Shown piece by piece: positions 41,307 to 42,054 of a DNA stretch of 44,644 nucleotides. Within the stretch, counting starts at the first letter, position 1. Each line of letters begins with the position of its first letter. The position numbers and the translations under genes are program-made. The notes beneath the pieces are model-generated. The model was given only the letters and a program-made list of their open reading frames with translations. It ran no database searches and was not told the origin of the DNA. The stretch lies in the IMG/VR virus record IMGVR_UViG_2568526230_000009; one strand, 5' to 3'. The DNA is from a virus (taxonomy: Duplodnaviria > Heunggongvirae > Uroviricota > Caudoviricetes).

Positions 41307-41872
41307 GCACTGCTATCGCTATTGCAAAAGAATATGCCAGTCTGATTGACCTGTTAGAAACCGCCGATGAACTGACGCCAGAGATGATCGCCGACACGCT
41401 TGAAGGCATGGAAGGAGAACTGGGAGACAAACTGGACGCCATGATGGTCATCTGCCGTAATTTACAGGGCAATGCCAATACCTGCGCTGAAGAAATGTCT
41501 CGCCTGGCAACCCGTAAGACGTCCTTTGAAGGCAAGGAAAAAGCAATTCGAAAGCATATGCTCACCTGCCTGCAAGCTGCTGGCCTGGATAAACTGAAAA
41601 CCGCAAAAAACACATTTACTGATGCACAGGGGGCTATCCGGGTAATTATCGATAGCAAAGATAAGATCCCGGATGAGTATGAGGGCGTGTCACTTGTTGA
41701 TGTAGAAACGGTTATTACACCAAACAAGCGAGCCATTAAAGAAGTGATTGAATCTGCGGAGGCGGTTGCCGCCGAAATACTGGCGCGTGGAGAAACACCA
41801 CCAGCCGAGTTATTAAACCCGGTACCAGGCGCACATCTGGAACGCGGCGAACGGTCACTGAGGATACGCTAA
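41303..41872 (+). CDS. Recombination-associated protein (Gp157-like, putative)
   Basis: 189 aa, coupled to the SSAP gene. Confidence 0.35.
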   Translation: MSTAIAIAKEYASLIDLLETADELTPEMIADTLEGMEGELGDKLDAMMVICRNLQGNANTCAEEMSRLATRKTSFEGKEKAIRKHMLTCLQAAGLDKLKTAKNTFTDAQGAIRVIIDSKDKIPDEYEGVSLVDVETVITPNKRAIKEVIESAEAVAAEILARGETPPAELLNPVPGAHLERGERSLRIR

Positions 41873-42054
41873 TGCTTAAACTCACATTAAAGCGTGGTGA
41901 CGCGGTTCACCTGGTACTTGCCGATGGTACCAATGGCATTATTGAAGCACGGAGCCGCTGCGAACTTGGGCTACACCTGCCAGAAAACATTAAGGTCACT
42001 CGGGAGAAATCGGCATTCACCCCACAAGAACTGATTACGCCTAATCAGAAATAA
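41872..42054 (+). CDS. Small protein with weak CsrA-like pattern
   Basis: 60 aa; MLKLTLKRGD...GLHLPENIKVTREK compared with CsrA from memory. Confidence 0.25.
   Translation: MLKLTLKRGDAVHLVLADGTNGIIEARSRCELGLHLPENIKVTREKSAFTPQELITPNQK

Follow-up and report, generated by a model that had tools for sequence, protein, structure and literature searches.

A question raised by the IMG/VR virus record IMGVR_UViG_2568526230_000009 is whether one of its smallest genes encodes a cryptic relative of the RNA-binding regulator CsrA. The gene, here called orf60 (Table 1), specifies a product of 60 amino acids (aa), MLKLTLKRGDAVHLVLADGTNGIIEARSRCELGLHLPENIKVTREKSAFTPQELITPNQK, which every source names only "hypothetical protein", and it belongs to the early-left (repressor-to-integrase) operon of a lambdoid prophage that has integrated at a tRNA-Leu gene beside pgsA. 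A sequence-only reading of the window (the whole stretch of 44,644 nucleotides (nt) that was analyzed) had proposed that orf60 may be a phage-encoded CsrA-like protein, and had suggested a profile search against the CsrA family and a structure prediction as checks. The resemblance to CsrA is, by sequence comparison, in register and above chance, but modest. A diverged CsrA-like binder of single-stranded RNA is a possible but doubtful identity for orf60, and two rival explanations have about the same likelihood: an accessory subunit of the adjacent recombination module, and an early modulator with a host protein as its target.

Since orf60 is short and has no annotated function, one might suspect a chance open reading frame (ORF) at the end of the upstream gene, which encodes a Siphovirus Gp157 family protein. 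That explanation is exceedingly improbable. The ORF has a good ribosome-binding site, the median ratio of nonsynonymous to synonymous substitution rates (dN/dS) is 0.064 with dS of about 1.3 (525 pairs; 37 distinct alleles of 183 nt), the length and position are kept from 100% down to 37% identity, and the AlphaFold2 model has a predicted local distance difference test score (pLDDT) of 89. The substitution pattern and the conservation rule out a chance ORF: orf60 is a real gene on which purifying selection acts strongly, and the sequence-only reading had placed its 60 codons exactly. The TAA stop of the Gp157 gene and the ATG of orf60 overlap by one base (TAATG), which suggests that translation of orf60 is coupled to that of Gp157.

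The orf60 family is compact. About 30 protein clusters of 60-61 residues share 61-100% identity with orf60 and come from Escherichia, Salmonella, Citrobacter, Klebsiella, Enterobacter and Yokenella; Pectobacterium phage ZF40 has a more distant homologue. A profile of the family run against 1.84 billion representative proteins returned 16 matches, of which about a dozen are small family proteins and the rest long repeat proteins, and extended the family by a few members, the most distant at 37% identity. The family corresponds to phrog_2482 (function unknown), which matches orf60 over its full length (E = 2.3e-36, residues 1-60 on profile positions 1-61 of 61) and likewise matches the distant members P0037 and P0043; the NCBIfam search with the orf60 protein gave no match. 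Invariant positions in the family are G9, D18, I24, R29, P37 and I55, and near-invariant ones include D10, G19, G22, N58 and Q59. The protein has several conserved basic residues and ends in a conserved basic/polar tail, LIKxNQK, which is non-helical and predicted to be disordered.

Resemblance of orf60 to CsrA

The two elements that had drawn attention to CsrA, MLxLT and GxxxPxxxxVxRE, are indeed shared with the Escherichia coli protein (the sequence used was verified as 100% identical to the database CsrA). CsrA/RsmA (Pfam PF02599) is of nearly the same size (61 aa), and the two proteins align without a gap through M1, L2, L4 and T5, through G9, which is followed by an acidic residue in both, and through G33, P37, V42, R44 and E45, which by direct reading makes 10 identities in 45 positions. 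CsrA was also the sole match of orf60 in a Pfam search (E = 0.097, 13.1 bits, residues 1-45 on profile positions 1-45). The same profile matched 14 of 25 family members, all in the same register, with the best value for member P0008 (19.6 bits, E = 9e-4).

Several comparisons place this in-register resemblance above chance, though only modestly. The ungapped in-register profile-profile score between the orf60 family and CsrA is 9.9 (z = 4.6), a value reached by 0 of 100,000 column permutations (mean -43, standard deviation 11.6), and zero shift is the best register among shifts from -10 to +10, the next-best shift scoring -12. When 1,354 ORFs served as decoys, all 25 family members lay in the upper tail (z = 2.2-5.0), and the single decoy that reached the in-register score of orf60 (z = 4.6) is by its score a true CsrA; the decoys were taken from the retrieved loci and include a couple of dozen more N-terminally extended CsrA proteins, which score 90-122 bits in a hidden Markov model (HMM) search. 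With a diverse CsrA profile (26 sequences of less than 70% identity from phage contigs, Bacillaceae and Borreliella), hhalign aligned residues 1-47 to positions 1-47 (P = 0.0029); 2 of 300 column shuffles reached the real score, and the reversed family scored 12.1 versus 18.1.

The likeness is concentrated in residues 1-14 (beta1 and a hinge) and 32-46 (beta4, a hinge and beta5). In CsrA the beta1-beta2 and beta4-beta5 loops are the hinges (PMC3791407), and the conserved G9, D10 and P37 of the orf60 family fall in the corresponding predicted loops. RsmA requires R44 (PMC3791407), and in the orf60 family this residue is at least 90% conserved and is kept in the divergent members as well. An alignment of seven CsrA sequences gave ten invariant positions (M1, L2, L4, R6, E10, I14, A36, P37, R44 and E46), five of which are identical in orf60 (M1, L2, L4, P37 and R44), two conservatively replaced (D10 and L14) and three different (L6, L36 and K46).

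Structure prediction gave a divided answer. AlphaFold2 with a shallow alignment produced four strands at a pLDDT of 76, and with an alignment that included the distant members it produced five beta strands (residues 2-6, 11-15, 21-25, 30-34 and 41-45) at a pLDDT of 89.4 and a predicted template modeling score of 0.66. These strands fall at the positions of beta1-beta5 of CsrA (structures 1Y00 and 2BTI). Residues 46-60 were modeled as coil (pLDDT of about 68) where CsrA has its C-terminal helix, and the confident monomer model retrieved generic beta-sandwiches rather than CsrA or RsmN. Comparison of a monomer fold is a weak test since CsrA is an intertwined dimer, in which each sheet is assembled from two chains in the order beta5A-beta2B-beta3B-beta4B-beta1A (PMC3791407). 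The missing helix speaks against a CsrA-type chain without settling the matter, given that the CsrA relative RsmN (RsmF) has a rewired topology and dispenses with the C-terminal helix (PMC3791407).

Several lines of evidence weigh against membership of orf60 in the CsrA family, and the coil and the beta-sandwich matches belong to them. No profile match attained a curated cut-off: family members score 13-20 bits against a Pfam gathering threshold of 27 bits, 11 of the 25 have no match to the CsrA profile at E values up to 10, and four of the five most divergent members scanned individually (P0034, P0037, P0038 and P0043) lack one. The hhalign probability is only 6.8-10.5% (P = 0.003-0.005). Pairwise BLASTP of orf60 against E. 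coli CsrA gave no alignment, the family HMM run against PDB at E values up to 10 retrieved no CsrA chain, and a PDB sequence search with the orf60 protein found no CsrA and nothing meaningful. Cross-matches between the PHROG families were likewise absent, with CsrA assigned to phrog_9500, phrog_5527, phrog_31572 and phrog_8397 and the orf60 family to phrog_2482 only, and the profile search of the 1.84 billion representative proteins revealed no sequence bridging the two. True remote homologues usually gain signal when profiles are used, whereas profile methods leave the CsrA signal of orf60 unamplified.

The residue pattern points the same way. L4 and G33 are lost in the most divergent family members, three CsrA-invariant positions are changed (R6 to L, A36 to L or F, and E46 to K), and I3 of CsrA, which is not invariant, is a conserved K or R. 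Among the invariant and near-invariant positions of the orf60 family, only G9, D10 and P37 coincide with CsrA features. The middle third of orf60 (residues 15-31, with a DGxNG turn and the invariant R29) is unrelated to CsrA, and the LIKxNQK tail stands in place of the C-terminal helix. None of 80 viral contigs that bear a true CsrA gene has this Gp157/annealase module nearby, and only 4 of the 80 have an integrase within 6 kilobases (kb). The E value of 9e-4 is a selected value, the lowest obtained with 25 related sequences, and we therefore estimate the family-level, library-wide significance at about E = 0.1-0.3, which makes the CsrA link a lead and not a demonstration. Of the proposed CsrA likeness, then, the weak in-register resemblance above chance stands and family membership does not, with every score below threshold; judged by the refuting outcomes that the sequence-only reading had named, the proposal nearly fails, and orf60 should not be filed as a member of the CsrA family.

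Bona fide CsrA genes do occur in phages. Homologues were identified by tblastn in 88 phage records and 364 IMG/VR stretches, and nothing emerged when viral contigs were scanned with Bacillus subtilis CsrA. A published survey listed 30 csrA-positive phages after PSI-BLAST to convergence, and phage ZF40 is not named in it (Sobrero & Valverde 2020; PMC7366521). Some true phage CsrA genes share with orf60 a place in the early-left operon of a temperate phage, as in Providencia phage PSTCR8lys and in the F116-like phage phiC725A. In the latter (3291-6029), the operon also encodes a homologue of the annealase domain found in the 738-aa protein specified upstream of Gp157, and the CsrA gene precedes this homologue by 1.6 kb. 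F116-like Pseudomonas phages carry both a true CsrA gene and an annealase-domain homologue in one early-left operon, with 1.6-2.4 kb between the two. Among the "viral" CsrA genes in IMG/VR, many lie a few hundred bases to a few kb from a contig end and share 85-96% identity with E. coli CsrA, and some of them may be host csrA from over-extended prophage calls.

Because the resemblance to CsrA is the only biochemical lead, a dimeric binder of single-stranded RNA is our leading single hypothesis, to be held tentatively. The orf60 protein would then correspond to the beta1-beta5 core of CsrA minus the C-terminal helix, either as a highly diverged relative or as a structural analogue, and would act as a small dimer that binds single-stranded RNA via its beta1 and beta5 edges, where its L2, L4, V42, R44 and E45 align with CsrA. 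Another RNA binder among the closest known systems is TRAP (MtrB), the trp RNA-binding attenuation protein. Like the products of the recombination genes and of xis/int, the orf60 protein presumably appears soon after induction or infection, and it might tune translation of the phage early-left messages (orf74, xis and int) or of host CsrA targets. A more elaborate version, which we consider improbable, is that phrog_2482 is an unrecognized helix-less offshoot of the CsrA fold that became fixed beside the YdfE-type annealase-Gp157 module of enterobacterial lambdoid prophages and rewires the Csr network in the lysis-lysogeny switch. Upon induction, orf60 would in that case act as a diverged CsrA-fold regulator or as a CsrA poison, either by occupying GGA-type RNA sites or by pairing with host CsrA in mixed dimers via the conserved beta1/beta5 swap elements.

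The recombination module and rival explanations

The genes upstream of orf60 provide the context for the rival explanations. Single-strand annealing is the probable function of the 738-aa protein, which would carry a long N-terminal extension (YdfE_N) particular to its lineage, since its residues 472-706 are 39-50% identical to Pseudomonas phage proteins of about 250 aa, one of which is annotated as a "RAD52-like annealing protein"; the "exonuclease" label that PHROGs gives it may be wrong. The order of the genes for the 738-aa protein, Gp157, orf60, orf74, xis and int is kept in all 82 viral loci, including those of Pectobacterium phage ZF40 (orf60 43% identical) and of two "Stenotrophomonas" phages. 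These two, BUCT708 and BUCT709 (recorded host Stenotrophomonas maltophilia), carry the whole module from the 738-aa gene to int with an orf60 that is 69% identical (OM816834.1, 1301-5652), and the host is an odd assignment for a module typical of enterobacterial prophages. In four loci of two of the most distant members (37% identity), the 738-aa, Gp157 and orf60 genes retain their order, with Gp157 again directly upstream of orf60 as in the 82, despite differing xis/int types and the occasional absence of orf74. Divergence of orf60 tracks the block of the 738-aa and Gp157 genes and not xis/int. The annealase domain alone (about 250 aa, the equivalent of residues 472-706) is widespread in the phage database, whereas the full-length 738-aa form is found there only in the four records that have orf60.

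One possibility, with about the same claim as the CsrA-like reading, is that orf60 is an accessory subunit of this module, a small partner of the 738-aa annealase and/or Gp157. Translational coupling would keep the partners in a fixed ratio, the LIKxNQK tail would contact the partner or the protein would bind single-stranded DNA, and the resemblance to CsrA would be chance or convergence between small beta proteins. The order maintained in 82 of 82 viral loci and in 4 of 4 distant-member loci despite swapped xis/int genes argues for such a role, as do the overlap of the orf60 start with the Gp157 stop, the shared divergence, and the co-occurrence with the full-length annealase; phage P22 offers a parallel in its small accessory recombination protein, Arf. 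The synteny may nevertheless be simple inheritance, since all of the loci belong to one phage lineage, and pairs of Gp157 with an annealase or RecT occur without orf60 in PMG1, HK140, mEpX1, HK639 and many other phages. Moreover, orf60a of phage lambda is joined to exo just as tightly, yet it is reported to modulate the choice between lysis and lysogeny, and not as a recombination factor (PMC6213356). In an alternative of comparable likelihood, orf60 would be an early modulator of the type found in the lambda exo-xis region, a small beta-sandwich that binds a host protein and has no link to CsrA or nucleic acid. Its effect after induction would be on host physiology or on the decision between lysis and lysogeny. 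Genes of the exo-xis region affect lysogenization and induction (PMC3824215, PMC6213356, PMC8614690). Like orf60a, orf63, orf61, ea22 and ea8.5 of lambda, orf60 lies between recombination genes and xis in a pL-type operon, is small and tightly packed against the upstream recombination gene, and would be expressed early and probably be non-essential.

The compact, confident monomer model with its likeness to generic beta-sandwiches suits an early modulator, and the strongly conserved, predicted-disordered tail would suit a short binding motif. Against it, the in-register CsrA signal is left unexplained and no sequence similarity connects orf60 with the small proteins of the lambda pL operon: when the family HMM was compared with twelve of these, the ten listed all scored below 0 bits, and ea22 and gam were absent at E values up to 1000. 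Homology of orf60 to those proteins was accordingly rejected. The recombination modules also differ, with a YdfE/Rad52-like annealase and Gp157 beside orf60 and Exo, Bet and Gam in lambda. A further proposal, that orf60 is an SH3-like small barrel whose central (K/R)GDxxHxxxxDGxNGxIEA segment marks a minimal SH3-type fold, is very unlikely. The Pfam family SH3_2 (PF07653) does match residues 4-28 in 7 of the 25 family members (E = 0.04-0.23), and one member matches SH3_YKFC_2nd (E = 0.25), but all of the scores fall below threshold (at most 14.1 bits, versus 21.8 for SH3_2) and are weaker than the CsrA scores in five of seven members scanned individually.

The prophage setting

The proposal that orf60 is phage-encoded was borne out by its surroundings (Table 1). 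The genes for a cI-like repressor, a 106-aa ORF, the 738-aa protein, Gp157, orf60, orf74, a DUF4224 excisionase and a tyrosine integrase follow one another on a single strand, which places orf60 between the Gp157 gene and xis/int, near attR at tRNA-Leu. The annotation of E. coli SK1144 makes the identical region the left end of a lambdoid prophage and shows uvrC and uvrY shortly after pgsA.

Table 1. Features around orf60 (positions are those of the window)
Feature	Position	Strand	Remarks
738-aa protein	39090..41306	+	phrog_2489 "exonuclease"; homologues carry Pfam YdfE_N and YdfE_C
Siphovirus Gp157 family protein	41303..41872	+	Pfam PF05565, E = 9e-29; phrog_253, E = 1e-46
orf60 ribosome-binding site	41860-41864	+	GAGGA, 7 nt before the ATG; read from the sequence
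orf60	41872..42054	+	ATG at 41872, TAA stop at 42052-42054; subject of this study; PHROG family phrog_2482
orf74	42104..42328	+	phrog_27062 (function unknown), E = 1e-32; GGAGG ribosome-binding site; 74 codons
Excisionase (DUF4224 type), xis	42264..42527	+	Pfam PF13986; phrog_1266 excisionase
Tyrosine integrase, int	42466..43512	+	longest ORF; Pfam and PHROG matches
tRNA-Leu(taa)	43643..43729	-	prophage end, attR side; followed by tRNA-Cys, tRNA-Gly and pgsA

PHROGs labels the Gp157 family "Mu Gam-like end protection". Neither the 738-aa protein nor Gp157 gave informative results in PDB sequence searches, and a literature search on the function of Gp157 gave nothing useful. About 65 nt are common to orf74 and the start of xis, and in RefSeq strain SK1144 no coding sequence is annotated at the position of orf74. 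The start of the integrase is ambiguous; the longest ORF overlaps xis by 62 nt, and RefSeq uses an in-frame ATG at 42496. A 2.6-kb stretch spanning orf60 (41000-43600) matches 462 of 5,426 complete E. coli genomes, always in the chromosome. Insertions of IS1, IS150 or ISEc52 break it in several of these genomes, which suggests that this end of the prophage is decaying in some lineages.

Two observations concern regulators elsewhere in the prophage and in its neighborhood. Rfam places the isrK Hfq-binding RNA and the C4 antisense RNA with its a1/b1 target at 32184-32381 on the minus strand; this C4 locus is an antisense immunity element of the P1/P7 type and adjoins a RefSeq gene with an ORF6N domain (antirepressor-like). 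The uvrY gene lies two genes from the prophage, about 2 kb past the right end of the window (25531-26187 in the retrieved host locus). Its product is a response regulator that switches on csrB and csrC, which antagonize CsrA; the closeness of uvrY to the prophage is probably a coincidence.

Implications for phage regulators

That phages carry CsrA is not a new idea, since bona fide phage CsrA genes are already documented, but a cryptic helix-less CsrA-like lineage, as yet unproven, would be new. The link between orf60 and CsrA is a weak lead of modest interest, and the case illustrates how far a motif-level resemblance can be trusted. If the link is true, a common prophage family of E. coli, Salmonella and Klebsiella would carry a cryptic and highly diverged Csr-type regulator that was missed by standard annotation (Pfam, NCBIfam and PHROGs), and the traffic of csrA on mobile elements would extend to a form unrecognizable by sequence. 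Such a regulator would also offer a handle on the relationship between prophage induction and global post-transcriptional control. If the link is false, orf60 and orf74 would emerge as small, fixed parts of an uncharacterized Rad52-like/Gp157 recombination module.

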